Below, one piece after another: positions 3,855 to 18,461 of a stretch of DNA of 23,435 nucleotides. Below the pieces are notes generated by a model, which was not told where the DNA came from, did no database searches, and worked only from the letters and a program-made list of their open reading frames with translations. How positions within the stretch are numbered: the first letter of the stretch is position 1; each line of letters starts with the position of its first letter. Both the position numbers and the translations under genes were made by a program. The stretch covers positions 1 to 23,435 of the forward strand of contig CAWJIM010000007.1 of the NCBI GenBank assembly GCA_963842945.1. Reading direction: 5' to 3'. This DNA is from an uncultured Gemmatimonadales bacterium. GTDB lineage: Bacteria; Gemmatimonadota; Gemmatimonadetes; Gemmatimonadales; GWC2-71-9.

Positions 3855-3882
3855 GAGAGGACCTCCATGGGTATACAGGTGG

Positions 3883-3911: not shown

Positions 3912-3937
3912 AGTTAGCTGCCGTCAGTCGCTGCCGG

Positions 3938-4204
3938 TCAGGTCGAGTCAGGCCGGACGGAATCCGCCGGGGCGGAAGTGTCAGACGGATAGGCACCCGT
4001 GCTCGCCGCAGTGGTATCTCCGTAGGCTCCCGGGGTGGCAGCCGTGGTGTCCTTAGCCGGGGCCGGGTTAGCACTAGTGGTGTCGGCTGGCGCCTGACCG
4101 GCAGCCTGTTCCGGCGTGGCTTGCTCCGGCTCCGACTTGTTGCAGCCACCGACCAGGATCACCGCCGCGACGATCCCGGCGCCCATCAGTTTTCCCTGCC
4201 ACAT
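3938..4204 (-). CDS. Small low-complexity lipoprotein (88 aa)
   Basis: GGAGG RBS before ATG 4204. Signal peptide MWQGKLMGAGIVAAVILVGG-C; mature part is rich in A/P/T/D/S. Confidence 0.8.
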   Translation of the reverse strand: MWQGKLMGAGIVAAVILVGGCNKSEPEQATPEQAAGQAPADTTSANPAPAKDTTAATPGAYGDTTAASTGAYPSDTSAPADSVRPDST

Positions 4205-4279
4205 AATGCCTCCGCGCATGAGTCGTGAAGAAACCTCTTTCCCAGGATCACTATGGGGGAGACCGAGGGTCCAACGAAA

Positions 4280-4295
4280 CTGCACTTTGTACCAG
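4280..4295 (-). promoter_or_regulatory. Degenerate palindromic activator box 1 (CTGGTAC-AA-AGTGCAG-TTTC) with -10 CATAGT at 4255-4250
   Basis: CTG-N10-CAG core with TTTC tail. The downstream 24-nt spacer and CATAGTGAT match those of box 7 (17881). Confidence 0.55.
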
Positions 4296-4324
4296 TCCCA
4301 GAGCCCACGACAAGGCGCGGCTGC

Positions 4325-4340
4325 CTGTCAGAAATGCCAG
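4325..4340 (+). promoter_or_regulatory. Palindromic activator box 2 (CTGTCAG-AA-ATGCCAG-TTTC) with -10 TAGCCT at 4364-4369
   Basis: Matches the repeated consensus; 23-nt spacer to TAGCCT; upstream of the DyP operon. Confidence 0.75.
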
Positions 4341-4437
4341 TTTCCTCCTGTAGCACCCACTCCTAGCCTCAAGCAGCCGCCGTACTCGCCACTCAGGCGC
4401 TGAGTAATCCTGCCAACGTCACCTACGAGAGGTTCCC

Positions 4438-5028
4438 ATGACGAACACCATGACCGAGCCAACCGACACGACAGAGATCGTAGAAGACTGGTCCAAGCCC
4501 GCAGCGATGGCGATTCCGAAGGAAGGGTTCTTCAAGCTGGAGCAGGGACGGTACGGTCCGATTTATCCCAAGACCCCCGCGAACTATGGGTTCACCATCA
4601 TCGCCAAGATCAAACCGGGTACCGAGCAGACCATCCGTGAGTACGGCCACAAGATCGAGGATACCATCAAGGGTCTGCCGGATGGACTTGCCGTGCTCAA
4701 GCTGCATTACCTCCGGTGGGTGCTCTTCGACATCGGCAAGGAGACCTACTTCATGTATCAGGGCATCTTCGATACCGATTTCGACAAGTACACCGAGGAC
4801 GCTGTTGCGCTCTTCGGCAAGTACGGCATCAGCACGGTCTTCGAGAACCTGGAGGGCTTCCCGATGGACTGGAAGACCAACCCTTCGGCGTTCGTCCAGT
4901 TCGTCCGCGACCACCACCGTCCCAGCTTCCTCGAGTACGGCGAGTACCCCTACGTGACCGCGGAGGAGATCAAGAAGGCGCTGAGGCTGAAGGCGGCGTT
5001 CTCCAACATGCTGGATCAGATGCAGTGA
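4438..5028 (+). CDS. Conserved hypothetical protein, DyP-associated (probable dimeric alpha/beta-barrel-like fold)
   Basis: 196 aa, GAGAGG RBS, strong codon bias. The FTIIAKIKPG...LHYLRWVLFD...GIFDTDFDKYTED pattern resembles domains found beside or fused to DyP and catalase genes. Confidence 0.8.
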   Translation: MTNTMTEPTDTTEIVEDWSKPAAMAIPKEGFFKLEQGRYGPIYPKTPANYGFTIIAKIKPGTEQTIREYGHKIEDTIKGLPDGLAVLKLHYLRWVLFDIGKETYFMYQGIFDTDFDKYTEDAVALFGKYGISTVFENLEGFPMDWKTNPSAFVQFVRDHHRPSFLEYGEYPYVTAEEIKKALRLKAAFSNMLDQMQ

Positions 5029-5047
5029 GTCGGCAGGGGAGGCAACG

Positions 5048-6373
5048 ATGCTCGAGCTCGATGACATCCAGCACATTCTGGTGACCCGAACCCCGGCGCT
5101 GACCGGGCGGTACGAATTTCTCACCTTCCGGGACACCGCCGGCGCCCAGGGCTGGCTTACGGGCATCCTGGAGAAGGTCCGCTCGGCCTCCAGCGTACGG
5201 ACTACGGTCGAGAGCGACAATCGCTGGGTGAACGTCGCATTCACCTGGGAAGGATTGCGGGCCCTCGGCGTGGATGAGGCGTCGCTGGCGACGTTCCCCG
5301 AAGAATTCAAGCAGGGCATGGTGGCTCGGGCCGAAATGCTGGGTGACACCGGCGTCAACCATCCGAACTGCTGGGTGGGAGACCTGGCCAGTCCCGACCT
5401 CCACGCCATAGTGATTCTGTTCGCCCGCACGGCCGCGGAGCATACCCGGTGTGTGGCGGCCCATGAGGAGCTGCTGGCGGAGATCCCCGGAGTGGAACGG
5501 CTCTCCTTCCTCGACCTCGAGGCCACCCCGCCCTTCGATTACGCCCATGACCACTTCGGCTACCGAGACCGTCTTTCCCAGCCGGTGATGAAGGGAACCG
5601 GAGAGGAGCCAACTCCCGGCTCCGGCGCGGCGCTCGAGCCGGGCGAGTTCATTCTGGGCTATCCCGATGAAAACGGTCCTCCCGCCCTCCAGCCGCAACC
5701 CCAGGTGTTGTCCCGGAACGGCAGCTATATGGCGTACCGCCGGCTGGAGGAACACGTGGGGAAGTTTCGGGAGTTTCTAGCCGAGCACGGGAAGACCGCC
5801 GAAGAACAGGAGTTCATCGCCGCGAAGCTCATGGGCCGGTGGCGCAGCGGTGCGCCGTTAGTCCTCGCTCCCGAGAAAGATGATCCGGTGCTCGGAGCCG
5901 ATATGCAGCGGAACAACGATTTCAACTACAAGAAGATGGACCCGCTGGGCTATGCCGTTCCGCTCGGCTCCCATTGCCGCCGGATGAACCCCCGGGACAC
6001 GGCCGCCAACATGAACCGGAGGCGGATGATTCGGCGGGGCGCCACCTATGGCCCGCCTCTGCCGGAAGGCGCGCCGGAAGACGGCGTAGAACGAGGGATC
6101 GCCGCGTTCGTGATCTGCGCCAGTCTCATCCGCCAGTTCGAGTTCGCCCAGAACGTGTGGATCAACGACAAGAACTTTCACGAGCTGAAAAATGAGCGCG
6201 ATCCGATCATCGGGACGCAGGACGGGACGCTGGAGTACAAGATTCCGAAGCGCCCGATAAAGAAGCGCATCACCGGCCTCCCCGCGTTCACCACCGTCCG
6301 GGGCGGGGCCTACTTCTTTCTACCGGGCCTCAAAGCGCTCAGGCATCTCGCGGGCTCGGGCGATGCGCGCTGA
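5048..6373 (+). CDS. DyP-type (dye-decolorizing) heme peroxidase, long class C/V-like
   Basis: GGAGG RBS. Motifs LDDIQ, HFGYRDRLSQP (GxxD motif), GEFILGY, NGSYMAYRRLEE, AKLMGRW, SHCRRMNPR (proximal His), IRRGATYG (distal Arg), QFEF and RDPIIG. No signal peptide. Confidence 0.92.
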   Translation: MLELDDIQHILVTRTPALTGRYEFLTFRDTAGAQGWLTGILEKVRSASSVRTTVESDNRWVNVAFTWEGLRALGVDEASLATFPEEFKQGMVARAEMLGDTGVNHPNCWVGDLASPDLHAIVILFARTAAEHTRCVAAHEELLAEIPGVERLSFLDLEATPPFDYAHDHFGYRDRLSQPVMKGTGEEPTPGSGAALEPGEFILGYPDENGPPALQPQPQVLSRNGSYMAYRRLEEHVGKFREFLAEHGKTAEEQEFIAAKLMGRWRSGAPLVLAPEKDDPVLGADMQRNNDFNYKKMDPLGYAVPLGSHCRRMNPRDTAANMNRRRMIRRGATYGPPLPEGAPEDGVERGIAAFVICASLIRQFEFAQNVWINDKNFHELKNERDPIIGTQDGTLEYKIPKRPIKKRITGLPAFTTVRGGAYFFLPGLKALRHLAGSGDAR

Positions 6374-6376
6374 GCC

Positions 6377-7285
6377 ATGCGCACCCTGCCCGTCGCGGTG
6401 GCCTGCAGCTTCATCGCGTTCGGGTGGGCCCAGGCGCAGAACCGGGGCGTCTACCCGCTGGGCATGAGCGCCATAGGCTCGGGCGTGATGCCGGCCGCCG
6501 GGTTCACCTACTCAAACTCGTTCCTGTTCTACTCCCGCAACCGGAGTGTGGATGCCGAGGGCGGGGTCTTGGCCACCGGCAGCAATTCGGTCCTTATGGA
6601 CATGAACGGGTTCGTGTGGGCCAGCGCGAAGCAGGTTCTCGGCGGGGCCAGGCTGGCGGCCTCGGCCACTCTGCCGATCGCCAACAACTCGCTTGCGTCC
6701 GACGCGAGCGGGGCAATCAGCGGCGGTGGCGGGTTTGCCGACTCCTACTATCAGCCGCTGATTCTGGGCTGGGCCACGCAACGCGCGGAGATCAAGGCGA
6801 TCTACGGATTCCTGGCTCCGACTGGGCGATTCGACGCCGGCCAGGACGATAACGTCGGATCGGGATACTGGACCCACGTCGTCGCATCGGGTCAAACGAT
6901 CTATCTGACCGCGGACAGGAGAACGGCTCTCTCCGCCTTCCAGATGTACGAGTTTCACGGCACTCAGGAGAGCACCGGTATTCGGCCGGGGCAGACCCTG
7001 AATCTCGACTATTCGGCCACTCGGTTGTTCCCGCTGCGGGAGGATCTGCAGCTGCAGCTGGGACTGGTTGGATACGAACAGCGGCAGACCACGGACAAGA
7101 CCGGGCCGACCGTAACACCGGAGCAGGCCGCGGCCCACTACAGCGTCAACGCGCTGGGCTTCACCGCAAACCTGGGCTTCCCCGCCCGGGAGGTCGGGCT
7201 CGGCCTCAAGTATTTCAAGGAGTTTTCCAACCGATCGACCTTCCAGGGCCACTCGCTGCAGATCGCCGCGTCGGTCCACTTCTGA
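6377..7285 (+). CDS. COG4313/SphA-like (Phenol_MetA_deg) outer membrane channel
   Basis: Signal peptide ending AQA; YPLG...G..P..G N-terminal plug; APTGRFD...NVGSGYW motif; C-terminal Phe. Confidence 0.85.
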   Translation: MRTLPVAVACSFIAFGWAQAQNRGVYPLGMSAIGSGVMPAAGFTYSNSFLFYSRNRSVDAEGGVLATGSNSVLMDMNGFVWASAKQVLGGARLAASATLPIANNSLASDASGAISGGGGFADSYYQPLILGWATQRAEIKAIYGFLAPTGRFDAGQDDNVGSGYWTHVVASGQTIYLTADRRTALSAFQMYEFHGTQESTGIRPGQTLNLDYSATRLFPLREDLQLQLGLVGYEQRQTTDKTGPTVTPEQAAAHYSVNALGFTANLGFPAREVGLGLKYFKEFSNRSTFQGHSLQIAASVHF

Positions 7286-7318
7286 CGGCGGTTTAGCCAG
7301 ACGAGAACGGAGCACAAT

Positions 7319-8335
7319 ATGAGTACAGTCAATGCCGCGAGGACCTACAACCAGGATCACGTTCCCCGGAAGTACAAGTCCGGCAAGCGGCGGGTGAGCA
7401 TCTACTGGACCTGGAGCTATCCCTGGGAGGCGAACCGCGATCCATCCATCATGGACAACCGCTTTTCCACCTTCACCGAGGTTCGCAGGGTGGCTTGGCC
7501 CGAGTATGAAACCCGGGAGTGGGACGAGCAGGGCTTCCTGCAGGGCATTGCCGGTACGCTGGAGCTGTTTCACCGCTCGACGCTGAGCTTTCAGCAGCTG
7601 GTGGGCGAAGCGACCGAGCAGCCCGTCGCCGTCTTCCAGCGGATCGACCAGGCCGGCTATCGGCAGCCGATCGACGAGCGAGTTCTGGCGGACACGGACA
7701 CGCTGATGGTCTTCGGGCTCGACCACCTGCTCGCGGAGCAGGAAGCTGCGCCGGAGGAGATCGCCGCGCTCCGGGAGTGGCTCAAGCGCGAGGGGACCTG
7801 TCTCCTGATCGGCCCCCACCATGACGTCGGTTTTGCGGCCGACCTGAAGCAGCGGCAGATGGAGTACAAGCACCACGGCGATCCGCTGGTGCCGCGGCAG
7901 CAGCGGTTCGGCCAGTACACCCGGTCTTTGATGAAGGGGCTGAACGTTCCGGTGATGAACCAGTACGGACTCCGCCCGGCGGTGGTAAAAGGCACCACCC
8001 AGATCGCGCCACTCCACACCAACCGGGACCTCGACGTCCGGGGCCTTCTGCGCGATGTCACCACCTTCAACTTCCATCCTCACCTGCCCCATTACGCCCT
8101 GACCAACGGCGACACCTCGTCGGTGCGGGTCCTCTCCTGCCAGCCGATCGACCTGGACCGGCCCCACCCGTTTACGGCCGCCGGCAACACCGAGTTCAAC
8201 TGCTTCATCTGGATGCCGCCTCAGTCGGAGCGCGGCGGAGATATCCTGATGGCTGACTCGACCATCTTCACCACGCTGTTCGGCGGCACCCAGAGTCTGG
8301 AGAATTTCTGGCGGAACCTCGCGCTGATGAGATGA
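7319..8335 (+). CDS. Conserved hypothetical cytoplasmic protein (possible class I glutamine amidotransferase-like/ThuA-like fold)
   Basis: 338 aa, GGAG RBS. The beta-alpha-beta pattern DTLMVFGLDH...EEIAALREWLKREGTCLLIGPHHD suggests the fold (inference). Also contains HPHLPHY. Confidence 0.75.
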   Translation: MSTVNAARTYNQDHVPRKYKSGKRRVSIYWTWSYPWEANRDPSIMDNRFSTFTEVRRVAWPEYETREWDEQGFLQGIAGTLELFHRSTLSFQQLVGEATEQPVAVFQRIDQAGYRQPIDERVLADTDTLMVFGLDHLLAEQEAAPEEIAALREWLKREGTCLLIGPHHDVGFAADLKQRQMEYKHHGDPLVPRQQRFGQYTRSLMKGLNVPVMNQYGLRPAVVKGTTQIAPLHTNRDLDVRGLLRDVTTFNFHPHLPHYALTNGDTSSVRVLSCQPIDLDRPHPFTAAGNTEFNCFIWMPPQSERGGDILMADSTIFTTLFGGTQSLENFWRNLALMR

Positions 8336-8360
8336 ACTAAGCGGGGCCACAAAGCCCAAC

Positions 8361-8376
8361 CTGTCAGAACTGCCAG
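8361..8376 (+). promoter_or_regulatory. Palindromic activator box 3 (CTGTCAG-AA-CTGCCAG-TTCC) with -10 TAGCCT at 8400-8405
   Basis: 15/16 identical to box 2, with the same 23-nt spacer and the same TAGCCT hexamer; upstream of the arylsulfatase. Confidence 0.8.
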
Positions 8377-8463
8377 TTCCCGATCGTACCGCGCGACCCT
8401 AGCCTGGAGCCATTCGCCACCATTGGCCACCAAGCGGCCGAGCCTTCCTGCCCGGCAGCCTGC

Positions 8464-8518
8464 GCCTTGTTAGGGGTATCCGCAGCGGCGTGATGAACGC
8501 CGACGATACCATCAAGGC
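8464..8518 (+). promoter_or_regulatory. Three-helix interrupted hairpin in the predicted arylsulfatase 5' leader
   Basis: GCCTTG/CAAGGC (8464-69/8513-18), GGTATC/GATACC (8475-80/8505-10), CGGCGT/ACGCCG (8486-91/8497-8502), loop GATGA. Confidence 0.4.
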
Positions 8519-8535
8519 CCACAACGAGAGGCCCC

Positions 8536-10899
8536 ATGAGTTCTCAGGACACCATCCAACGGTCGATTCTTCCGATCCCGGACGCGCAACACGTGGGATT
8601 GACCACCTACGATGCCAAGGATCCGGACACAAAATTTCCAGCCATCGAGCCGCTCCGGCCGCCCAAGGGAGCGCCGAACGTCCTGGTCATCCTGATCGAC
8701 GACTGCGGCTTTGGCGCTACCAGCGCCTTTGGTGGGCCGGTCGCGACGCCGAACGCAGAACGGCTGGCGAAGAGCGGGCTCAAGCTGAATCGCTTTCACA
8801 CCACCGCCCTCTGCTCTCCCACCCGCCAGGCGCTGCTGACCGGGCGGAACCACCATTCGGTGAACATGGGCGGCATCTGCGAGATCGCGACCTCGGCGCC
8901 CGGCTATACCTCGATCCTGCCGAAGAACAAGGCGCCGCTCGCGATGACCCTCAAGCTCAACGGCTACGCGACGGCGCAGTTCGGCAAGTGCCACGAGGTC
9001 CCGGTCTGGGAGACCAGTCCGATGGGACCCTTCGATCAGTGGCCGACCGGTGGTGGCGGCTTCGAGTACTTCTACGGTTTCATCGGTGGTGAGACCAACC
9101 AGTGGTACCCCGCCATCTACGAAGGCACCACGCCGATGGAACAGGGCAAGACCCCGGAGGAGGGCTACCACTTCACCGAAGACATGACCAACAAGGCGAT
9201 CGGCTGGATTCGACGGCAGAAGGCGCTGATGTCCGACAAGCCCTTCTTCATCTATTTCGCACCGGGCGCCACCCACGCCCCCCATCACGTCCCCAAGGAA
9301 TGGATCGACAAGTACAAGGGCAAGTTCGACCAGGGTTGGGACAAGGTGCGGGAGGCGACCTTTGCCCGGCAGAAGCAGCTGGCTGTGATTCCGGCCGACG
9401 CGGTTCTCACCAAGCGGCCGGAGGAGATTCCCGCCTTCGACGACATGCCCGAAGAGCTGAAGCCGATTCTGGCCCGCGAGATGGAAGTCTATGCCGGGTT
9501 CCTCGAGCACACCGACTACCACGTCGGCCGCTTGTTCGACACCCTGAAGGATCTGGAGATCCTGGATGACACGCTGATCTACTACATCTTTGGGGACAAC
9601 GGCGCCTCCGCGGAGGGTACGCTGAACGGCTGCTTTAATGAGGTGGCCGTGCTCAACGGCATGGGTACGATCGAGACCCCCGAGTTCCTCATGAGCAAGA
9701 TCGATGACTTCGGCGGACCGCATGCATACAACCACTACGCGGTGGGCTGGGCCCATGCCATGAACACGCCCTACCAGTGGACCAAGCAGGTGGCGTCGCA
9801 CTTCGGCGGTACCCGCAACGGTACGATTGTGCACTGGCCCAAGGGCATAAAAGGTAAGGGCGAGATCCGGTCTCAGTTCTGCCACGTGATCGATCTCGCG
9901 CCCACCGTTCTGGAGGCCTCAGGGCTGCCGCATCCGACCATCGTGAACAGCGCGCAGCAGGCCCCGTTCGAGGGCAGGAGCATGATGTACGCCTTCAAGG
10001 ACGCCAAGGCGGCTGAGCAGCGGGAGACCCAGTACTTCGAGATGTTCTGTAACCGGGGGATCTATCACAAGGGCTGGACCGCGGTGACCCGGCATGGGAT
10101 CCCCTGGGTCGGCTCCTACAAGCGCGCCTTCGACGAGGATGTCTGGGAGCTATACGATACCAACTCCGACTGGAGCCAATCGAAGGATTTGGCCAAGGAG
10201 CAGCCGAAGAAGCTGGCCGAGCTCCAGCGGCTATTTCTAATCGAGGCGGCCAAATACAATGTCATTCCGCTCGACGATCGGACGTTCGAGCGCTTCAACC
10301 CCGACCTCGCCGGCCGCCCGCAGCTGATCAAGGGCAACTCGCAAATCCTGTTCGGCGGCATGGCCCGGCTGAGCGAGGGCTCCCTTGTCGTCACCCACAA
10401 CAAATCGTATTCGCTGACCGCGGAGATCGAGGTGCCGAAATCCGGCGCGAAAGGCGTCATCGTGGCACTGGGTGGCGACGTGGGCGGCTGGAGTCTCTAC
10501 GCCCATAACGGGAAGCTGAAGCACTGCTACAACTTCTTCGGCATCACGCGGTACTATACCGAAGGCAGTAAGCCAATTCCCCCCGGCAAGCACCAGGTTC
10601 GGATGGAGTTCCAGTACGATGGGGGCGGCCTGGCCAAGGGCGGCGACGTGGCGCTCTTCGTGGACGGAAAGAAAGACGGCGAGGGGCGGGTCGAGATGAC
10701 GGTCCCGATGCTGTTCTCCGCCGATGAGACCTGCGACCTAGGTAAGGAAACGGGGTCGACGGTGTCTCCGGACTACGCCCCGGCTCACAACGATTTCAGC
10801 GGCGAGGTCAACTGGGTCCAGATCGACCTAGAGAAAGAAGATCAGGACCACCTCATCACGGCGGAAGAGCGCTTCCGGGTCGCGATGGCCGTGCAGTAG
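8536..10899 (+). CDS. Arylsulfatase (Cys-type, formylglycine-dependent S1 family; long form with C-terminal beta-sandwich)
   Basis: PNVLVILIDDCG, LCSPTRQALLTGR, FGKCH, HAPHH, GDNG and HFGGTRN motifs; GAGAGG RBS; no signal peptide. Confidence 0.96.
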   Translation: MSSQDTIQRSILPIPDAQHVGLTTYDAKDPDTKFPAIEPLRPPKGAPNVLVILIDDCGFGATSAFGGPVATPNAERLAKSGLKLNRFHTTALCSPTRQALLTGRNHHSVNMGGICEIATSAPGYTSILPKNKAPLAMTLKLNGYATAQFGKCHEVPVWETSPMGPFDQWPTGGGGFEYFYGFIGGETNQWYPAIYEGTTPMEQGKTPEEGYHFTEDMTNKAIGWIRRQKALMSDKPFFIYFAPGATHAPHHVPKEWIDKYKGKFDQGWDKVREATFARQKQLAVIPADAVLTKRPEEIPAFDDMPEELKPILAREMEVYAGFLEHTDYHVGRLFDTLKDLEILDDTLIYYIFGDNGASAEGTLNGCFNEVAVLNGMGTIETPEFLMSKIDDFGGPHAYNHYAVGWAHAMNTPYQWTKQVASHFGGTRNGTIVHWPKGIKGKGEIRSQFCHVIDLAPTVLEASGLPHPTIVNSAQQAPFEGRSMMYAFKDAKAAEQRETQYFEMFCNRGIYHKGWTAVTRHGIPWVGSYKRAFDEDVWELYDTNSDWSQSKDLAKEQPKKLAELQRLFLIEAAKYNVIPLDDRTFERFNPDLAGRPQLIKGNSQILFGGMARLSEGSLVVTHNKSYSLTAEIEVPKSGAKGVIVALGGDVGGWSLYAHNGKLKHCYNFFGITRYYTEGSKPIPPGKHQVRMEFQYDGGGLAKGGDVALFVDGKKDGEGRVEMTVPMLFSADETCDLGKETGSTVSPDYAPAHNDFSGEVNWVQIDLEKEDQDHLITAEERFRVAMAVQ

Positions 10900-10906
10900 G
10901 ATTTCT

Positions 10907-12095
10907 ATGGCCTCAACAACGGCAACCGGATCGCCAGAGTTTTCATTGGTCCTGGGCGGGCCGCTGTATCAACTCTGGCGACGGACTCGTCTGTGCGGAG
11001 ACGCTCTGCAGCTCACGCGGCGCCGGATCGTCGTGCTGACGGTCCTGGCCTGGGTGCCCCTGCTGGTCCTCTCCGCCCTGCAAGGATATGTCTGGGGCGG
11101 CGTGGAGCTGCCCTTCCTCTACGACGTCGAACTGCACGCCCGCCTGCTGCTGGCGATGCCCCTTTTGATCCTGGCCGAACTGGCCGTGCACCGACGCTTG
11201 CGCGCGAACGGTGGAGCAGTTTGTCGAGCGGGTTCTGATTCCCGATTCGCAACGGGCGGCCTTCAAGGCGGCCGTCACCTCCGCTATGCGGCTGCGCAAT
11301 TCGGTCTGGGTGGAGGCGCTGCTCCTCATCCTGGTCTACGTCGTCGGAGTCGGATTTCTCTGGCGGAGGCAGATGGCCCTCCCCGTACCGAGCTGGCACG
11401 GGGCCATTGTCGACGGGATATGGCGCCCGTCGCTCGCCGGCTGGTGGCTGGGCCTGGTGAGCCTGCCGTTGTTTCAGTTCCTTCTGCTGCGCTGGTATTT
11501 CCGGTTGTTCATCTGGGCGCGTTTCCTCTGGCAGGTGTCGCGAATCGAACTGAATCTCATGCCAACGCATCCCGACCGCGCCGGAGGCTTGGGCTTCCTT
11601 GCCAGCGTGAGTCGCACGTTTGCGACGGTGCTGCTGGCCCAAGGCGTATTGCTGGCGGGGCTGATGGCCAACCGGATCTTCTACGCCGGCGCGACCCTGC
11701 CCCAGTTCAAGGTGGAGCTGATCGGGCTGGTGACCGTCATGGTGTTTGCCATACTGGGACCTTTGCTCGTGTTCATGCGCCAGCTCGAAGCCGCCCAGCG
11801 CGCCGGTTCGCGCAAATACGGCGTACTGGCTCAGCGATACATGCGCGAGTTCGACGGCAAGTGGGTGCGGGCAGAGGCGCCGCCAGGCGAGCCGCTGCTC
11901 GGAAGCTCCGATATCCAGTCGATGGCGGACATGGGAAACAGCTACGACGTGGTGAAGGAGATGAGGTGGATTCCGTTCACGCTGTCGACCGTCGTGCAGT
12001 TGGCGGTGACCACCCTCCTGCCTGTGCTGCCGCTGGGGTTGACGATGTTCTCGGCCGAGGAGTTTCTCGACCGCCTGCTTAAGGTCGTATTCTAG
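10907..12095 (+). CDS. Conserved multi-pass membrane protein of unknown function; +1 frameshift at about 11207
   Basis: AGGA RBS. The FSLVLGGPLYQL N-terminus in one frame continues as VEQFVERVLIP...HPDRAGGLGFL...LLGSSDIQSMAD in the next. Removing one A of AA at 11207-8 gives HRRLRATVEQF. Confidence 0.82.
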
Positions 12096-13228
12096 CCCGC
12101 CTCGTAGTATTCGGCTGGATCACCACTTGCTGCGGAAGAGTTTGGGCGCAAGGGGTAGAAACCTCCGACATCTCCTCGATCGAGCCGGCGCCTGGAACTG
12201 TCGAAAGCACTGCCGAAGAAGGATCTGGGGTTACCCCGCTGGTGGCACCACTGCCGTTTCGGAACTCGCAGATCGGCTGGGGCATGGCCCTGATGCTGGG
12301 CCTGATTCACCGGTTCGATGCCGATACCACCATCAAGCCTTCTACCGGAGCCATTGTCGGTCTCGCCAGCGAGAATGGCAGTTGGGGCGTCATGGCGATG
12401 GAGATGGCGCGCCTCGGCCGGGACAGCTGGCGGGCCCGCGGCGTGGCCGGCTACATGGACCTACAGTACGATTTCTATGGAATCGGCATCGACGCCGGAG
12501 AAGCGGGTCAATCGGTGCCGATAGAACAGACGTTTTTTGTGGCCTCGGGTGCCCTGCTCCGCCGTGTCGCCAACGGACTCTACCTCGGGGGTCAAGTCGT
12601 CTGGCTGACCACCACCGTCACACCCCAGGACTCGGCGGGACCGAATCAGCCCGCGCTGCCCGATCAGGCCAACACGGAGCTCCTGGCGGGCGGCCTTCAG
12701 GCGGAGTTCGATACCCGGGACGACGACTACTGGCCCCAGCGAGGGTCGTTGGCGCAGCTCAAGGGGAACTTCTTCACTACAACCACCGGAGAGTCGGGCT
12801 CATTTCAACGCTACCAGGCGGCCTGGTCCTGGTATCACGGCTTCAAGGGGCCACGCCTGGTGCTAGCCACGAACCTCCTCGCCTGCGGAGCGCCGGGAGA
12901 TGCTCCGTTCTACGGCCTCTGCTCGCTGGGCACCGGCCGTTTCTCCGTGCGGGGGTACACCCAGGGGCGTTACAGGGATCACTACACTACCGCGGTTCAG
13001 GTGGAGCTGCGCGGTCACACCGCGGGTCGACTGGGTGCCGTGCTTTTTGGGGGTTTCTCGCAGGTGGCCCCGGAAATTTCGGAGATTCTCAATTCGGAGC
13101 TGCTTCCAGCCGGCGGCGCTGGTCTCCGCTTTCAACTAACCCGGAAATATCCGATGCACCTGCGGCTGGATTATGCCTGGGGCCGTGACGGCGGGCTGCT
13201 GTACTTCTCGGTGGGCGAGGCCATCTGA
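12089..13228 (+). CDS. Omp85/BamA-TamA-like outer membrane beta-barrel protein without POTRA domains (start uncertain; first canonical start is GTG 12242)
   Basis: DTRDDDYWPQRG, VRGYTQGRYRD (VRGY loop-6 motif), GAGLRF, LRLDYAWG and YFSVGEAI motifs. The frame is open from 12083 with a signal-like LARLVVFGWITTCCGRVWA-Q. Confidence 0.85.
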   Translation: MLARLVVFGWITTCCGRVWAQGVETSDISSIEPAPGTVESTAEEGSGVTPLVAPLPFRNSQIGWGMALMLGLIHRFDADTTIKPSTGAIVGLASENGSWGVMAMEMARLGRDSWRARGVAGYMDLQYDFYGIGIDAGEAGQSVPIEQTFFVASGALLRRVANGLYLGGQVVWLTTTVTPQDSAGPNQPALPDQANTELLAGGLQAEFDTRDDDYWPQRGSLAQLKGNFFTTTTGESGSFQRYQAAWSWYHGFKGPRLVLATNLLACGAPGDAPFYGLCSLGTGRFSVRGYTQGRYRDHYTTAVQVELRGHTAGRLGAVLFGGFSQVAPEISEILNSELLPAGGAGLRFQLTRKYPMHLRLDYAWGRDGGLLYFSVGEAI

Positions 13229-13268
13229 GGAGCGCTCCAACGAACCTTGACTGAGATCAACGAAGGTT

Positions 13269-13625
13269 TCAGCTGTGCGGGATAGCACCCTCCCGATGCC
13301 GCTCCTGTAGCTCGGCGAGGTCTCGATCGAGGAAGAAGTTGAGGAAGGTCCGGATCACGGCGACCGCCCCGAGCCGGGCGACCGCCTCCCAGTGATGGGT
13401 GATAGAGGTCTCCACGATGTCGGCGCCGAGCTGGAAGGTGAGCGCAGCAACCAGCCAGCGGGCGTAGCGGAGCCACACGTCGCGCCGCGCCGGCCACGGG
13501 CCTCCGGCCAGGAGCAGCCGGACTACGCCAACGATCGCCTCCACCGATCCCGCTAACACCATTAACAGCGCGAGGCCGTTGAGGAAGGCGATGGAGATTT
13601 CGGTCACGTGCGTTAGCCAGCTCAT
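13269..13625 (-). CDS. DUF1622 family membrane protein
   Basis: 118 aa; LVAALTFQLGADIVETSI...W..VARLGAVAVIRTFLNFFLDRDL signature. Confidence 0.9.
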   Translation of the reverse strand: MSWLTHVTEISIAFLNGLALLMVLAGSVEAIVGVVRLLLAGGPWPARRDVWLRYARWLVAALTFQLGADIVETSITHHWEAVARLGAVAVIRTFLNFFLDRDLAELQERHREGAIPHS

Positions 13626-13661
13626 CGGCTTGACGATCCGGTGAGCCGGCGCAGACTGAAA

Positions 13662-13677
13662 CTGTCAGTTGTGACAG
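13662..13677. promoter_or_regulatory. Palindromic activator box 4 (CTGTCAG-TT-GTGACAG), possibly bidirectional
   Basis: Minus strand reads CTGTCAC-AA-CTGACAG-TTTC. Hexamers lie 23 nt away on both sides: CATCCT at 13701-13706 (+) and GATCGT at 13638-13633 (-). Confidence 0.72.
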
Positions 13678-13758
13678 TGCCCGGACCGCCCCATTCTCGG
13701 CATCCTCTCGCCATGCGGTGGATCCGGGCCCCGACCCTCTTGCGCGCAAGGTGGTACC

Positions 13759-14625
13759 ATGTGGCGCTTCCTCGTTTTCGCGGCCGGCCTCACCCCAGTG
13801 CTCGCCTCAGCTGCGGCCGCCCAGGAGCCGGACTCCCGCCTGTACCCGAAATGGGAGCTCGATGCCTCGGCTACGCTCCTGCTGCTGGGCGAAAACATCC
13901 GGATCGATCCCCAGAATCAGGAGGGCGAAGGCAGCGAGATCGATGCCGAAGATGCGCTCGGCGTTTCCGGGACCAGTTTCCAGCCCCGTGCGGCTTTGCG
14001 CTGGCGGCCCGGCAAGCGGCATGAGCTGGAGCTGGGATATCTCCGCGCCGTCCGTTCGGCCGAGAAGGTGCTGGTCGACACCCTGACCTTTTCCGATACC
14101 ACTTTTGACGCCGGGCTCAGGCTCAACTCGAACCTCAGAACCAGTCAGGCGTTCCTGACCTACCGCTACAGCTTCCGGGCCCGGCCCGAGAGTCAAATCG
14201 GGGCCGCCGTAGGCCTGGGTGCCATTTTCTTGAAGAGCGAGCTCAATGCGGTGGCGGGGGCCACCCAGGGTGGGCCTGATACCGCGATCGTCGAGAGATC
14301 GAAGACCACCAGCTTTACCGCCCCTACGCTTTCACTGGGACTCTATGGCCGGTGGAAGCTGGGCGAGAAGTGGTACCTGGAATCCGATGCGCGGGGAGTC
14401 TATTTCAAGGTCGAGAACTTCAAGGCCGGGGTGGCCGAACTGGGACTGGCCGCACGGCGCTTCTTCAGCGAGAAATTCGGAGCGGAACTGGGATATAACC
14501 TCGGCTTCTACACGGTGACTCTGGAGAAGACCAGCGAGGAGAGCGCCTTCCTCAACATCGACGTGGCGGGAAAGATCAAGTACACGGTGAACGGCTTTCG
14601 GGGAGGCATAGTCTGGATTTTCTAG
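13759..14625 (+). CDS. Outer membrane beta-barrel protein, hypothetical
   Basis: Signal peptide ending AAA-Q; alternating amphipathic strands; C-terminal GGIVWIF. Confidence 0.85.
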   Translation: MWRFLVFAAGLTPVLASAAAAQEPDSRLYPKWELDASATLLLLGENIRIDPQNQEGEGSEIDAEDALGVSGTSFQPRAALRWRPGKRHELELGYLRAVRSAEKVLVDTLTFSDTTFDAGLRLNSNLRTSQAFLTYRYSFRARPESQIGAAVGLGAIFLKSELNAVAGATQGGPDTAIVERSKTTSFTAPTLSLGLYGRWKLGEKWYLESDARGVYFKVENFKAGVAELGLAARRFFSEKFGAELGYNLGFYTVTLEKTSEESAFLNIDVAGKIKYTVNGFRGGIVWIF

Positions 14626-14657
14626 GCTTCACCGGAATGTCGTTTGCCAGGTCCAAC

Positions 14658-15200
14658 CTATTTCACGCTGTACCCCTTCCCTTCCAGGCATGCGCTCATC
14701 CCCTTCTTGAACGCGTCGATCTTCCCGGCTGCCTCTCCCTGGGCCCCGGCCACCGCCTGCTGCTCCGCCTGCTTGCTGGCCTGCTTCTTGGCCCGTCGGC
14801 CCTTGACGGCTCCCGCCGCCGCCCCGATCGCGGCACCTGTGCCGGCGTCGCCGGCAATTCCCCCGACGATGGCTCCGCCCGCAGCTCCGCCGGCCGCACC
14901 TTTGACTGCCGCCCCGTGCGTCGCGGTATCGGCGGCCGCCTTCCCCGCTGCTGCCGCGGAGTCGGTGTTCACTGTTACGGCTGCGGGATCGATTCCGGTC
15001 TCCGATTTGGACCAATCGTAGCAGGCCTTCTCGTCCGCAGCCTGCTGCTCCTTGGTCTGGTCCTTGGCGGGAAACACCACCAGGCCCAGCTGGCTCGAGA
15101 TTGAAGCCGACGCGGGGGCTGCTGTCTGGGCTCCGGCCGGCTTACTCCCTATTCCCAGCGCCCACGCCAGCAGCAGCGTGGCGTAGAAAACTTTTCTCAT
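14658..15200 (-). CDS. Secreted glycine-zipper (YMGG-like) protein
   Basis: AGGAAGGG RBS before ATG 15200; signal peptide; FPAKDQTKEQQAADEKACYDW, GAAGGAAGGAIVGGIAGDAGTGAAIGA and ACLEGKGYSVK motifs. Confidence 0.88.
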   Translation of the reverse strand: MRKVFYATLLLAWALGIGSKPAGAQTAAPASASISSQLGLVVFPAKDQTKEQQAADEKACYDWSKSETGIDPAAVTVNTDSAAAAGKAAADTATHGAAVKGAAGGAAGGAIVGGIAGDAGTGAAIGAAAGAVKGRRAKKQASKQAEQQAVAGAQGEAAGKIDAFKKGMSACLEGKGYSVK

Positions 15201-15226
15201 GCTGCCCTTCCTGAAAACGACCCACT

Positions 15227-15895
15227 CTAGAAGGCGAACACCAGGCCGCCGGTCCACTGGCCCTGGTTCACCCAGGCCGTCCCTTCACCCGCGACACAGG
15301 CATAGAACCCGCACCAGACCCCGTAATCGCCCGAGGGAACCGGCGTTACCCAGAGCTTGATGTCGCTGCGGATGCCGATCCGCTGGCTGGAGAACATGTA
15401 CTTGGCCCCGCCGCCGACGCTCCAGGAGAAGCGGGTACTGGAACCGATTCCTTCCGCCTTGGGATCGAGAACGTTGATTCCGAGGGAGCCGGTGATGAAG
15501 GGCCGCAGCTTCTCCGAGTGCCCGAACTCCTGCCGTCCGCCGATCTGGACGTAATTGAACGCGAAGCCGCCGGGCAGAGGTACGTTCGCTCCTCCCCCAG
15601 CCGGATCGAACTCGATGTCGCTATCCTGCCGGGAGTAGAGCAGCTCGACGGCAGATCCCATAGTGGCCAGGAAGCTGACGACCAAGCCCCAGGAGAACGA
15701 ATCGGGCACCCGGAGTTCTCCCGCTCCCAGCGCGCCGCCTGTGTTGGTCTCGAATGCGCCGCCAAACGACCAGGCCGCAAACGGCGTGAGCTCGAAGCGG
15801 CTGTGGTGCACCTCCTGCAATTGCGCTGCTGCCGGCGCCGCTGTGAGCCACAGCGCTGCAACGCCACTGACAAGGGGGAAGATACGGCATCTCAT
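15227..15895 (-). CDS. Outer membrane beta-barrel protein (8-stranded OmpA/OmpW-like barrel)
   Basis: GAGG RBS before ATG 15895; signal peptide ending AAA-Q; FELTPFA, LRPFITGSLG and FSWSVGGGAKY strands; C-terminal GLVFAF. Confidence 0.85.
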   Translation of the reverse strand: MRCRIFPLVSGVAALWLTAAPAAAQLQEVHHSRFELTPFAAWSFGGAFETNTGGALGAGELRVPDSFSWGLVVSFLATMGSAVELLYSRQDSDIEFDPAGGGANVPLPGGFAFNYVQIGGRQEFGHSEKLRPFITGSLGINVLDPKAEGIGSSTRFSWSVGGGAKYMFSSQRIGIRSDIKLWVTPVPSGDYGVWCGFYACVAGEGTAWVNQGQWTGGLVFAF

Positions 15896-15993
15896 GGTGT
15901 GCCTCACTGGGTTCGTAAATGGATGCTTGGCACAGCTCGGCTCAGCCGCCGGGCCGACGGGTACAGGGTACGGTGTTCCGGGTGCTGGGGTAA

Positions 15994-16009
15994 CTGTTAG
16001 TTCTTACAG
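15994..16009 (-). promoter_or_regulatory. Palindromic activator box 5 (CTGTAAG-AA-CTAACAG-TTAC) with -10 TACCCT at 15970-15965
   Basis: Consensus match; 23-nt spacer; internal promoter upstream of the 15895 gene. Confidence 0.75.
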
Positions 16010-16024
16010 GGCAAGGCTCCAGCC

Positions 16025-17167
16025 TCACCACCCCACGGTGTACTGCGCGCCCAGCGTGTAGTCCACCTGATCGGCATGCAGCTGGGCGGCGCGATAGCCG
16101 GTGGACCAGGTGCCCCGCCGGTTCACCATCCTCAGCCGGAGCGCCAGGTTGGAGACAACTTCCCAGGCGAGGGTCAACCGCTCCAGTTGCTCTCTCCCCC
16201 GGGGCGCGAGCGATTGGTCGCCGAAGGCCACCATGCGGTCCAGCGTGACGGTCAGAGGGATCCGGACGTCGGTGAGCCCTCCATTGAACGAAATGAAGTT
16301 GGTCAGCTCCTGCATGACGCCCCTTCCGTTGCCATAAACTCCGATCTGCGTGCTGACGGTCAGGCCCTTGAGCATGATAGCCGGCCCTATGCTCGCTCGA
16401 TAGGCGGTCCCACTGCTGAGGGCAACATTCCCGGCGGTGGGCTGCCAATCCGCGTGAATAGTGCCGAGGTGGACCGCCAGTCCGTACCCCATACCACCCG
16501 AGCCACGCTTGATCTCCCGAGAGAGGTCGAGTGAGGCCGCTCGGGCCCCTGACCCAAAGGAGCCTTCCAGCCGGGCACTCAAACCGGCGACCGCGAGCTC
16601 CGCCTGCAGATTGAGCTCCGAGGCGCTCTGAGCGCCGCGCTGGGTCGGGCTTCGATCGGGGCCGCGGATCGCCCGCTGGCTGAAGTTTGTGCTCCAGCCG
16701 CCGGTGATCGCCACAGAGCGCCGGTTTCTTTCCGGCAGCAGAACCGAGAGCTCGTGGTAGTAGGACTCGCAGGCGTGGCGGCGGCAGACCTGAACCTTGA
16801 GCGGCTTCTTCACCACATTGAGGAGCCGGCCCTCGTGGCGCACTGCATAGCGCATGACCGGCAGGCTGTCCCCGAAATCCGATTGGAGCCAGGTCTGGAG
16901 CTTGGACCCGGTGGCCGAGTACCGGTCCAGCTCGTTGGCCGAGCTGACCACGATACTATCCGCGGAAGGACTGGTAACGCTGAGGTGGATCGGGCCGTCC
17001 GCCCGGCTGACCCCAGGGTTGAGGTGCAGCCGGACGGGGGCGGGGCCGCCCGAGAGATTGATGGTCGTCGCTGCCGGAGTGCTACAGGCCTGAAGTGCTA
17101 ACGAGCCCGGCACCGGCCCGAGCGACAGCAACGTCCACCGGAGCTTCCTGCAGAGTGCTGCTGGCAA
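16025..17167 (-). CDS. Hypothetical outer membrane protein (lipobox-like N-terminus, C-terminal beta-barrel); start uncertain
   Basis: 380-aa ORF filling the gap between neighbouring genes; LALQA-C; amphipathic strands ending YTLGAQYTVGW; overlaps the upstream gene by 86 nt. Confidence 0.65.
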   Translation of the reverse strand: MPAALCRKLRWTLLSLGPVPGSLALQACSTPAATTINLSGGPAPVRLHLNPGVSRADGPIHLSVTSPSADSIVVSSANELDRYSATGSKLQTWLQSDFGDSLPVMRYAVRHEGRLLNVVKKPLKVQVCRRHACESYYHELSVLLPERNRRSVAITGGWSTNFSQRAIRGPDRSPTQRGAQSASELNLQAELAVAGLSARLEGSFGSGARAASLDLSREIKRGSGGMGYGLAVHLGTIHADWQPTAGNVALSSGTAYRASIGPAIMLKGLTVSTQIGVYGNGRGVMQELTNFISFNGGLTDVRIPLTVTLDRMVAFGDQSLAPRGREQLERLTLAWEVVSNLALRLRMVNRRGTWSTGYRAAQLHADQVDYTLGAQYTVGW

Positions 17168-17762
17168 AGACCTTCTCTTTCTTCATCTGGCTGACGGTAG
17201 CGTCGACGATGTCATTGACCAGCTTCCGCACCGAGTCTGGATTGTAGGTCTTGGTGCGGCTGGCCCAGACCAGTTTGTTCTGGGTCAGCGAATAGACGTT
17301 CGACTCCACGCTCACCACCTGGTCCTGTTGGACGTAGCCGGGAGAGTAGGCGTACCCCCAGCCCGTGCCCCAGTAGCCCCACATCGACCCGTACGCCGAC
17401 GGGACCACATAGGACGAACCCGGGACGTAGGTGGTCTCCTGGTCGACCGCCACCGGACGCATCACCACGGCGCCGTCGAAGTTTTGCGCTATGACCAGCG
17501 CCCGGGCCTTTTCCTGGTCCCGCAGAACCTCATCCGGAATAACCGAGTAGGCCGCTACCCCATTCCCCAGCTTCTTGGCCAGCTCGTCCTCCGCCGCGCG
17601 GCGCATACCCACGTCCTTACTGATGAAGACCGCAAGAACCTTCTTGAACTTTTGCGGCTGCATCGTGGGCTCTTTCCAGGAGTTCACCACCTCCGTATTC
17701 GGTGCGCAGGCACCGAGCAGGAGGCTGAGCGCGAGAGCAGGGTGAGTTCGGGTAATTCGCAT
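17082..17762 (-). CDS. Lipoprotein, DUF4136-like
   Basis: AGGAGAG RBS; lipobox LLLGA-C; SWKEP...KKVLAV...RRAAEDEL; Y/W/G-rich loop; KLVWASRT motif. Confidence 0.85.
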   Translation of the reverse strand: MRITRTHPALALSLLLGACAPNTEVVNSWKEPTMQPQKFKKVLAVFISKDVGMRRAAEDELAKKLGNGVAAYSVIPDEVLRDQEKARALVIAQNFDGAVVMRPVAVDQETTYVPGSSYVVPSAYGSMWGYWGTGWGYAYSPGYVQQDQVVSVESNVYSLTQNKLVWASRTKTYNPDSVRKLVNDIVDATVSQMKKEKVFASSTLQEAPVDVAVARAGAGLVSTSGL

Positions 17763-17842
17763 ACTCTCTCCTGGTGATTGAGATCGAGTCGGTCAGCGGT
17801 ATTCCGGTAACTCACGGTAGAGTCCGGTACTGCCAAGGGAAA

Positions 17843-17858
17843 CTGTTAGTTCTAACAG
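17843..17858 (-). promoter_or_regulatory. Palindromic activator box 6 (CTGTTAG-AA-CTAACAG-TTTC, perfect 7-2-7) with -10 TACCGT at 17819-17814
   Basis: Perfect inverted arms; 23-nt spacer; upstream of the 17762 gene. Confidence 0.8.
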
Positions 17859-17880
17859 CAGTGTCCTCCGACCTCCGCCA

Positions 17881-17896
17881 CTGGTAGAACTGACAG
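17881..17896 (+). promoter_or_regulatory. Palindromic activator box 7 (CTGGTAG-AA-CTGACAG-TTTC) with -10 CATAGT at 17921-17926
   Basis: Consensus match; 24-nt spacer; upstream of the 17955 operon. Confidence 0.75.
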
Positions 17897-17954
17897 TTTC
17901 GGGCGGACCCGGGAACTCCGCATAGTGATTCAGTCTGCCACCTAAGGAGGCCGC

Positions 17955-18461
17955 ATGAGGATGGCCCACCCAGTCTGGCTCGGCGCACTCGCCCTGAGCG
18001 GACTGCTCAACGCACGGCCTGCTCAGGCCCAGGGCGGCCAGCCCACCAACGTACAGGATCAGATCGAGCTCACCCGGGCCAACATCCAGGAGCAGCGGCA
18101 GCAGATCGTGCAGCAGATCATGGAGCTGACGCCGGCCCAGAGTGACAAGTTCTGGCCGGTCTACCGAGATTTTCGCAACGAGATCGCCCGGGTGAGCGAC
18201 CAGCGGGTCGAGCTGATCGACCAGTTCGCGAAGCAGGCTGCAACCATGTCCGATGAGCAGTCGGAGAAGCTGCTCCATCAATGGTTCAGCCTGCGGGAAC
18301 AGCAGATCAACGTGCAGAAGAAATACGCCGGGAAGTTCCGCAAGGTTCTGCCGGGTGCCAAGGTGGTCCGCTTCTACCAGACCGAAAACCTGCTCGACAC
18401 GATCGTCAGCGCCAACATTCAGGCTTCCATGCCGGTGGCGGGGGACAGTGTCACACAGTGA
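17955..18461 (+). CDS. Secreted all-helical hypothetical protein (Spy/CpxP-like), paralog B
   Basis: TAAGGAGG RBS; signal peptide ending AQA-Q; 168 aa; paralog of 3351..3854. Confidence 0.88.
   Translation: MRMAHPVWLGALALSGLLNARPAQAQGGQPTNVQDQIELTRANIQEQRQQIVQQIMELTPAQSDKFWPVYRDFRNEIARVSDQRVELIDQFAKQAATMSDEQSEKLLHQWFSLREQQINVQKKYAGKFRKVLPGAKVVRFYQTENLLDTIVSANIQASMPVAGDSVTQ

Follow-up and report, generated by a model that had tools for sequence, protein, structure and literature searches.

We describe here a stretch of DNA (the window) that makes up the complete 23,435-bp contig C7. The contig belongs to G000, an assembly of 4.30 Mb in 24 contigs from an uncultured Gemmatimonadales bacterium (completeness, 86.9%; contamination, 6%). 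The G+C content of the window is 60 to 66% along its whole length. Between its genes lie seven copies of a short imperfect palindrome, which we call the box, one of them two-faced, and behind the resulting eight promoter faces stand 19 to 22 genes (Table 1). An earlier note made from the same DNA (the original prediction) had proposed that the boxes define a regulon of about 21 genes; that count is fair, with the reservation that its HdeD assignment is weak and below the cut-off. We describe the box, the promoter layout that accompanies it, and the regulator that most likely binds it, a NarL-family response regulator encoded on another contig, which we call RR-B.

The window has a second copy in the same assembly. 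Positions 40 to 23435 of C7 and positions 235061 to 258569 of contig C2 form one continuous alignment of 88.1% identity, in which the seven boxes recur in identical order, and past the homologous stretch C2 carries three additional boxes, at 260186, 265006, and 270389. The C2 copies of the sulfatase, DyP-type peroxidase, DUF3943, and 7319-8335 genes contain 2 to 4 frame changes per gene; the C7 genes are intact. This situation could reflect a paralogous island in decay, frame errors in the assembly, or a variant of a related strain that was binned together with the genome. Only one island is present in the long-contig relatives G087 and G105. Positions 13200 to 19000 of the window were found in 20 sequencing runs, all of soil or rhizosphere DNA and in small shares; none of the runs listed was RNA.

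Box sequence and promoter layout

The box is an imperfect 16-bp palindrome composed of two heptamers with a 2-bp gap (a 7-2-7 inverted repeat), with the consensus CTGTYAS-AA-CTRMCAG and the core CTGTCA-N4-TGACAG. A search of the window for CTGTYAGAACTRMCAG with up to 2 mismatches returned 8 strand-matches at 6 places (4325+, 8361+, 13662-, 15994-, 17843-, and 17881+), each within 1 mismatch of CTGTYAGAACTRMCAG on its best strand, where 0.02 matches are expected by chance and 0 of 100 shuffles reached 8; relaxing the search to 3 mismatches gave the same 6 places and added none. The seventh copy claimed originally, at 4280 on the minus strand, has 5 mismatches to the consensus by count and was missed by this search. 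It retains the CTG...CAG arms, a TTTC tail, and CATAGT 24 nt past the box, and it is letter-identical in the C2 copy. Since the genes at 3351-3911(-) and 17955-18461(+) are paralogues (78 to 79% DNA identity), the promoter at 4280 is the counterpart of the one at 17881. The first gene behind it, 3944-4204(-), has orthologues (42 to 53% identity) that also come first behind boxes in four genomes, and these boxes, in G002, G008, G055, and G082, are canonical. On these grounds, we accept 4280 as a weak but real box.

All seven boxes lie outside the gene calls, which are rough, based on codon bias, and cover 81% of the G000 genome, and every box faces a gene start, as originally stated. We built a matrix from the sites and searched all 4.30 Mb of the genome with its 16-bp core (threshold, ≥14 bits); this gave 31 places, among which the 15 on C7 and at C2:239-270 kb rank 1 to 14 and 16. 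This ranking is circular because the matrix was built from these sites; their location outside gene calls (15 of 15) is not. Half of the 16 remaining, weaker places (8) lie inside genes, and none of the 16 is followed by the TTWC tail described below. Away from the island, C24:463069-463084 reads CTGTCAGTTGTGCCAG, followed by TTGCCG, 17 nt, and GACCAT, 43 nt before a 333-aa gene (463128-464129), and is a possible extra regulon member.

The promoter layout was derived from 78 sites, 15 from G000 and 63 (≥27 bits) from the islands of 12 other genomes of the genus; removal of redundant sites (≥80% identity over the box and the following 45 nt) left 53 sites from 13 genomes. Past the box, position +24 is T in 34 of the 53, +25 is A in 42, and +29 is T in 42, with 1.32 bits of information at +25 and at +29 and at most 0.38 bits over +5 to +21 and +30 to +45. 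Between the box and the best TAnnnT-like hexamer lie 23 nt at 41 sites, 24 nt at 5, and 22 nt at 4; the remaining 3 sites have it at other distances (ties going to 23 nt). The hexamers and spacings originally listed for the window, 23 nt or, for the two CATAGT hexamers, 24 nt, are all correct. The accompanying statement that there is no obvious -35 element needs amending. Positions +1 to +4 read T, T, T/A, C, as part of a TTWC(C/G)N hexamer that abuts the box, and 17 nt then separate this hexamer from the TAnnnT-like one, a spacing at which TTWC reads as the first four bases of a -35-position hexamer. The tail is real, as the core-only genome scan shows, and its one-sidedness is what a promoter element, but not a longer palindrome, would produce. 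Symmetry is confined to the 16 bp, and the upstream flanks are variable.

In this layout, the center of the box lies 31 bp before the -10-like hexamer, with the box abutting the TTWCnn at the -35 position, and it is predicted to fall at -43.5 if transcription starts 7 nt past the hexamer. The DUF1622 gene fits that predicted start independently. On the minus strand, it begins 7 nt past GATCGT (13625-13638), which leaves no room for a ribosome-binding site, a layout kept in C2, G011, and G105. Its mRNA is predicted to be leaderless because the ATG sits 7 nt past the hexamer.

The expectation that boxes would be conserved upstream of orthologues was borne out. A box precedes orthologues of a gene for a REC-only protein in 10 genomes, of the outer-membrane protein (OMP) gene in 7, of the DUF4136-like gene in 6, of the small lipoprotein and MscS genes in 4 each, and of the sulfatase (G087, G091, and G105) and 196-aa protein genes in 3 each; the box of promoter P2 is kept before orthologues in G011, G087, and G105, the tail at the right face of promoter P4 is complete, TTTCCG, in C2 and G105, and the G087 orthologue of the 13759-14625 protein has a box of its own. 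The layout is maintained before orthologous genes whose remaining intergenic DNA has diverged. Between C7 and C2, likewise, boxes and hexamers are kept and spacers have diverged; in the spacer of the 8361 promoter, 10 of the 23 C7 bases are unchanged in C2.

TABLE 1 Promoters and target genes in the window and the candidate regulator genes on contig C2 (box-to-hexamer distances are counted from the end of the box)
Feature	Coordinates	Strand	Details
Promoter P1	4250..4295	-	Degenerate box CTGGTACAAAGTGCAG 4280-4295; tail TTTCGT 4274-4279; CATAGT 4250-4255, 24 nt past box
P1 operon	2744..4204	-	Three genes; orthologues in G011
P1 gene 1, lipoprotein	3944-4204	-	87 aa; lipobox LVGGC; Pro/Thr/Ala-rich tail; missed by gene caller
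P1 operon, exported protein	3351-3911	-	186 aa; paralogue of 17955-18461
P1 operon, HdeD-like membrane protein	2744-3319	-	HdeD family E 6.7e-9, under cut-off
Promoter P2	4325..4369	+	Box CTGTCAGAAATGCCAG 4325-4340; tail TTTCCT 4341-4346; TAGCCT 4364-4369
P2 operon	4438..8335	+	196-aa protein (no family), then the next three rows
DyP-type peroxidase	5048-6373	+	P2 operon
Phenol_MetA_deg outer-membrane channel	6377-7285	+	P2 operon
338-aa protein of no known family	7319-8335	+	P2 operon
Promoter P3	8361..8405	+	Box CTGTCAGAACTGCCAG 8361-8376; tail TTCCCG 8377-8382; TAGCCT 8400-8405
P3 operon	8536..13188	+	787-aa sulfatase-family enzyme 8536-10899; unassigned proteins 10907-12082 and 12127-13188
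Two-faced promoter P4	13633..13706	both	Box 13662-13677, CTGTCACAACTGACAG on minus strand
P4 left face (coordinates of the hexamer)	13633-13638	-	TTTCAG tail; GATCGT 23 nt past box; DUF1622 ATG 7 nt on
P4 right face (coordinates of the hexamer)	13701-13706	+	TGCCCG tail; CATCCT 23 nt past box
DUF1622 membrane protein	13269..13625	-	P4 left-face target; orthologues box-preceded in G011 and G105
Exported protein of no known family	13759..14625	+	288 aa; signal-peptide start MWRFLVF; P4 right-face target
Promoter P5	15965..16009	-	Box CTGTAAGAACTAACAG 15994-16009; tail TTACCC; TACCCT 15965-15970
Outer-membrane beta-barrel protein	15227..15907	-	Behind P5; box-preceded orthologues (61-96% aa identity) in 7 genomes
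Promoter P6	17814..17858	-	Box CTGTTAGAACTAACAG 17843-17858; tail TTTCCC; TACCGT 17814-17819
P6 operon	16025..17762	-	DUF4136-like lipoprotein 17082-17762; 380-aa unassigned protein 16025-17167; box-preceded orthologues in 6 genomes
Promoter P7	17881..17926	+	Box CTGGTAGAACTGACAG 17881-17896; tail TTTCGG; CATAGT 17921-17926, 24 nt past box
P7 operon	17955..22220	+	168-aa exported protein, formylglycine-generating enzyme, DUF3943 protein, 131-aa protein, SBF-family transporter
Formylglycine-generating enzyme (FGE-sulfatase)	about 18541-19479	+	P7 operon
SBF-family transporter	21363-22220	+	P7 operon
RR-B	G000 C2:263697-264401	-	REC 1.7e-21; GerE 4.9e-18
RR-A	G000 C2:265118-265741	divergent from RR-B operon	REC + GerE

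Just beyond the box-controlled part, the window carries an OmpA-family gene with thrombospondin type 3 repeats (1469-2647, plus strand), which converges on the HdeD-like gene. The sulfatase and its maturase had suggested a response to sulfur starvation, an idea that received no support from the cysteine-plus-methionine content of 20 regulon proteins (2.33%, compared with 2.37% for 2,609 other called proteins; as low or lower in 44% of random 20-gene sets).

Candidate regulators and distribution of the box

The original prediction had placed a LuxR/NarL-type helix-turn-helix (HTH) regulator outside the window, to be looked for in flanking sequence, and sequence comparison points to such a gene. 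G000 has 9 GerE-type HTH genes, all on contigs other than C7, and two of them, for RR-B and RR-A, flank the C2 box at 265006, about 5 to 6 kb beyond the stretch homologous to the window. This box is the best conserved of all and, as CTGTCA-CAAC-TGACAG, a perfect 6-4-6 palindrome; it lies between divergent operons, and its tail and hexamer point to the RR-B operon, not to RR-A. The RR-B operon encodes a REC-only protein, RR-B, an aquaporin, an OMP, a 266-aa HisKA_3 kinase that has no sensor domain, and an Omp85-like protein, placing a REC + GerE regulator together with a kinase near the sites. On the other side lie RR-A, a REC-only protein, and then a convergent MASE1-PAS kinase; a second MASE1-PAS hybrid kinase on C2 ends exactly where the homology to C7 starts. 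Among solved structures, NarL is the closest to RR-B (7e-26), with VraR, DesR, and EvgA also among the nearest, and the closest to RR-A are StyR (4e-48) and FixJ (1e-36).

The intergenic region between the two regulators was compared across 11 genomes. The block GTTGCAAG-CTGTCACAAMTGACAG-TTWC is nearly invariant there and the DNA on its upstream side is unalignable, which we read as the signature of an autoregulated promoter. The part of this block directly upstream of the regulator's own box, (A/G)GTTGCAAG, covers 8 to 10 bp (C2:265022-265031; about 22 to 31 in locus L003), is itself nearly invariant in the 11 genomes, does not occur at the other boxes, and reads TTGCAA, -35-like, on the opposite strand. 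It might be the half-site of a second regulator or belong to the RR-A promoter, for which no -10 element was found at a consistent distance from the opposite-strand TTGCAA across the genomes compared.

Within the genus, the 20-mer pattern (≤1 mismatch) matched 17 of 103 genomes, 14 of them with 3 to 15 copies and always clustered; no genome had a match to the reversed pattern used as a control. Orthologues of RR-B (E of 1e-40 or better) are present in 15 of the 103 genomes, and the box is present in all 15. The two genomes that have a box and no RR-B carry a single site each; one of them, G002, is 76% complete, and the site of the other, G103, has 1 mismatch and is not of the CTGT type. RR-A orthologues (≥64% identity) occur in the same 15 genomes, adjoining RR-B, and all other RR-A matches are paralogues of at most 53% identity. 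The phylum was surveyed by an even draw of 401 genomes with a looser pattern and zero mismatches, which matched G000 and 3 of 24 other genus members, gave a single site in 1 of 142 family members from other genera, and matched 0 of 234 genomes from other families. From these counts, the regulon is an accessory island of a single genus.

When one genome from each of 185,579 species was scanned for CTGTCACAANTGACAGTTWC, 81 stretches matched, compared with a rough chance estimate of about 9 that assumes equal base frequencies. We retrieved 80 loci, 28 from Gemmatimonadales, 46 from Acidobacteriota, and 6 from elsewhere (2 from Selenomonas and 1 each from Binatia, Verrucomicrobia, Flavisolibacter, and Bacteroidaceae). 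An RR-B-like gene (39 to 47% identity; E of 1e-42 to 1e-48) lies within 4 kb of the box at 12 of the 52 loci outside Gemmatimonadales, often accompanied by a REC-only gene and a HisKA_3 kinase gene. Linkage between the box and RR-B-like genes is found in three phyla. At the 12 loci, the stretches concerned match RR-A at only 24 to 29%, and none of the 52 loci has an RR-A-like gene of its own. Three genomes of 4.4 to 5.9 Mb (G483, G484, and G485) have one match to the looser pattern genome-wide, and it lies 0.05 to 1.9 kb from an RR-B-like gene. The box-linked regulators of the different phyla have in common the unusual recognition helix RTV(A/R)(F/Y)HKY(R/K/Q)(I/M)M, where RR-A has GTVKLHRANLIRKL. 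Because of the linkage outside the genus and the shared recognition helix, we name RR-B rather than RR-A as the candidate regulator.

The genes behind these distant boxes overlap with those of the window. In 34 of the non-Gemmatimonadales loci, the first open reading frame (ORF) behind the box encodes a Phenol_MetA_deg protein (4 loci), a sulfatase (2), an SBF-family protein (1), a DUF1579 protein (3), a bestrophin-like protein (2), DUF3300, DUF3302, NapC/NirT cytochrome, HAD, and Por_Secre_tail proteins (1 each), a DUF3943 protein below threshold (1), or a protein of no family (16); further loci have an ORF of the DUF308/HdeD family (L098) or a DUF3300 ORF (L056). Sulfatases, MetA-type channels, SBF, DUF3943, and HdeD-like proteins are the families that also stand behind boxes in the window. 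The kinases in Acidobacteriota and Binatia are 754 to 755 aa long; in them, HisKA_3 is preceded by a weak match to a periplasmic-binding-protein-like region and by a PAS domain. On a contig of a Selenomonas metagenome-assembled genome (low G+C, Negativicutes; L040/L072), two identical boxes with identical flanks lie 1.3 kb apart, the first followed by a good -10 element, TAGAAT; this pair could be due to chance, a repeat element, or a related regulon.

Readings of the box

The boxes are genuine promoter elements and are probably bound by a dimer of the NarL-family regulator RR-B, which is predicted to activate transcription from near -43.5. The HisKA_3 kinase would phosphorylate RR-B, and phosphorylated RR-B would dimerize on the box, which directly precedes a weak -35 element, and recruit RNA polymerase as NarL does at yeaR, in a noncanonical class II manner through the C-terminal domain of the alpha subunit (alpha-CTD). 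RR-B would thereby raise its own synthesis (positive autoregulation) and induce in concert some 20 proteins of the window, most of them exported or in the membrane, together with MscS, the aquaporin, and others on C2. The neighboring two MASE1-PAS kinases, RR-A, and two single-domain receivers probably feed into RR-B.

Several points weigh against this reading. Ties between hexamers were broken towards an offset of 23, and the near-invariance of the tail was partly selected because the position weight matrix and the search patterns held TTWC. RR-A and RR-B are always adjacent in the genus, so that co-occurrence there cannot separate them, and the co-occurrence of regulators and box in the genus partly reflects physical linkage in one island. 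The 12 loci outside Gemmatimonadales represent about 6 lineages and are therefore not 12 independent cases, and some Acidobacteriaceae have an expanded set of RR-B-like genes (13 in G486), so that adjacency there singles out no paralogue. Positions +24 to +29 at the Acidobacteriota loci (L030 to L108) read TGrACT (T in 20, G in 19, A at the fourth position in 20, and the final T in 21 of 33), and G as the second base is unusual in a sigma-70 -10 element, which leaves the type of core promoter uncertain in that phylum. Finally, a site that touches the -35 element could repress instead of activate.

An extension of the RR-B reading, which we put forward tentatively and only as a whole, is that the relatives of RR-B make up an unrecognized NarL subfamily that has the helix TV(A/R)FHKY(R/K)IM, reads CTGTCA-N4-TGACAG, and controls a conserved, horizontally shared regulon for envelope remodeling in the abundant, uncultured soil phyla Acidobacteriota, Gemmatimonadota, and Binatia. 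Its content would comprise a sulfatase with its maturase, MetA-type outer-membrane channels, SBF, HdeD-family, and MscS proteins, aquaporin, and bestrophin-type channels; the signal in Acidobacteriota would be sensed by the kinases with a periplasmic-binding-protein-like domain; and in one Gemmatimonadales genus the regulon would have been rewired with MASE1-PAS kinases into a mobile island.

Among the alternatives, it is unlikely that the box is bound by RR-A, a FixJ/StyR-like regulator for which the neighboring MASE1-PAS kinase would be the activator and which would stand at the top of a cascade over the island and the RR-B operon. StyR and FixJ, its nearest solved relatives, bind palindromes of the 16-bp type. 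RR-A is transcribed divergently from the best-conserved box, and its orthologues are found in exactly the 15 genus genomes that have RR-B and the box. Nevertheless, the tail and the hexamer of that box face the other operon, outside the genus it is RR-B-like genes that accompany the box (12 loci, compared with none for RR-A-like genes), and the recognition helix of RR-A is unlike the one common to all box-linked regulators.

It also appears quite unlikely that the box is a repressor operator, at which a dimer of RR-B or of another protein sits against the -35 element and blocks RNA polymerase until a signal removes it. GerE-type regulators can repress, and the box touches the -35 position at every promoter. 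However, the site leaves the -35 hexamer, the spacer, and the -10 element uncovered, and its spacing, on one helix face, does not vary by even a base pair, which resembles the geometry of activation at yeaR. The core elements, moreover, are weak, which is what promoters that depend on an activator would show: TTWCnn agrees with TTGACA in nothing but its first two T's, and the -10-like hexamers (e.g., TAGCCT and TACCGT) are rich in G+C.

We consider it improbable that the box is read by an unlinked regulator of another family, either a CRP/FNR-type protein on TGTCA-N4-TGACA or a quorum-sensing LuxR protein, with the two-component genes being targets only. As we read the sequence, the inner 14 bp of the box are symmetrical in the 5-4-5 manner of FNR-type sites, and the box agrees at 12 of 16 positions with what we take to be the core of the Vibrio fischeri lux box. 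The lux box is, in addition, centered at a similar place, -42.5 (according to the part of PMC3376562 that describes it). Against such a regulator stands the linkage of the box to RR-B-like genes in three phyla. For the CRP/FNR type, the predicted center lies 31 bp before the -10-like hexamer and not 29 bp, the distance that a passage of PMC9314961 gives for CRP class II sites (center, -41.5), and no cNMP-binding or Crp-type HTH match was found among the ORFs scanned in the window and in the flanks of its C2 copy on both sides (C2:225-235 kb and 257-285 kb), to which this search was confined. For the LuxR type, the autoinducer-binding domain PF03472 gave no match in the 86.9%-complete G000, with a positive Escherichia coli control; the candidate was therefore rejected, and the quorum-sensing half of the lux analogy drawn in the original prediction does not apply. 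That the repeats are nonregulatory remnants of a small mobile or REP-like intergenic element is hardly credible: they are short, palindromic, intergenic, multicopy, and clustered, but they are always oriented towards a gene start at a fixed spacing to a -10-like hexamer, stand before orthologues in genomes with unalignable flanks and before the same gene families in another phylum, and show no conservation past 20 bp except at the regulator's own site.

Three other readings of the sequence were tried and rejected. The GAAC at the box center lies 29 nt before the hexamer, too far for the -35/-10 pair of an extracytoplasmic function (ECF) sigma factor; the box does not fit the sigma-54 pattern TGGCAC-N5-TTGC; and its CTGNCAG repeats recur every 9 bp, not every 11 bp as in PhoB sites.

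Comparison with known systems and significance

The closest known counterpart is NarL. The consensus of the NarL heptamer is TACYYMT, from which the box heptamer, CTGTYAG, differs, so the box does not have the heptamer of the NarL regulon. The helix of RR-B likewise has AFHKY where NarL has its base-contacting residues, Lys188, Val189, and Lys192 (listed in a section of PMC10853779), and the targets here are envelope proteins with no link to nitrate respiration, in an uncultured member of the Gemmatimonadales that is read from sequence alone. The architecture, on the other hand, is similar. NarL binds 7-2-7 inverted repeats, and at yeaR it occupies one site, TAACCAATAAATGGTA, just upstream of the -35 element and centered at -43.5, where a single dimer acts in a noncanonical class II manner by contacting alpha-CTD and not sigma region 4, as described for the cryo-electron microscopy complex in the same part of PMC10853779. 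The box likewise is a single 16-bp 7-2-7 repeat just upstream of a -35 position, centered 31 bp before the hexamer, and a REC + GerE regulator lies alongside a HisKA_3 kinase as in NarX/NarL. In a derivative of the ogt promoter, one NarL site 32 bp before the -10 element suffices for activation (from the part of PMC9314961 concerned with ogt).

Other regulators of the wider family resemble the system less. As in the lux box, whose outer arms are CTG...CAG, the box is an inverted repeat that begins and ends with these triplets, and both are associated with GerE/LuxR-type HTH proteins. However, LuxR has an autoinducer-binding domain, for which no counterpart was found in G000, and the regulator here is predicted to be a response regulator of the phosphorylation type. 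The lux box, moreover, spans 20 bp over the -35 region of an activator-dependent promoter, as stated in the part of PMC3376562 that deals with it, and is one base pair closer to the promoter than the 16-bp box with its predicted center at -43.5. UvrY/SirA (the GacA family) is also of the NarL/FixJ family, and the TGT...ACA-type arms of its site, TGTGAGAGATCTCTTACA, resemble the box variant CTGTAAGAACTAACAG; but that site, as given in a portion of PMC4682653, is an 18-nt inverted repeat at about -183 of the small-RNA genes csrB and csrC, far upstream, whereas the 16-bp box abuts the -35 element of protein-coding operons.

We therefore regard the regulon as real and of a known mechanistic kind, that of a NarL-type dimer at -43.5; activation, binding, and the transcription starts are what we infer from the sequence. 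In the literature searched on response-regulator regulons of Gemmatimonadota and Acidobacteria and on LuxR-family sites of the TGTCA/TGACA type, we found no description of this box, regulon, or regulator subfamily. Both Gemmatimonadota and Acidobacteriota rank with the most abundant bacteria of soil. The finding pairs a candidate regulator with an operator whose DNA address can be read, and it supplies a defined layout for the promoters and a list of targets. The mechanism is close to the textbook; the value lies in a proposed new subfamily, in box-target pairs that recur across phyla, and in a handle on uncultured organisms. About twenty proteins without an assigned role, including members of several families that lack any function (DUF1622, DUF3943, DUF4136-like, DUF1579, and DUF3300), would be tied to one signal, and the inducing condition, once found, would therefore annotate many of the target proteins at once.

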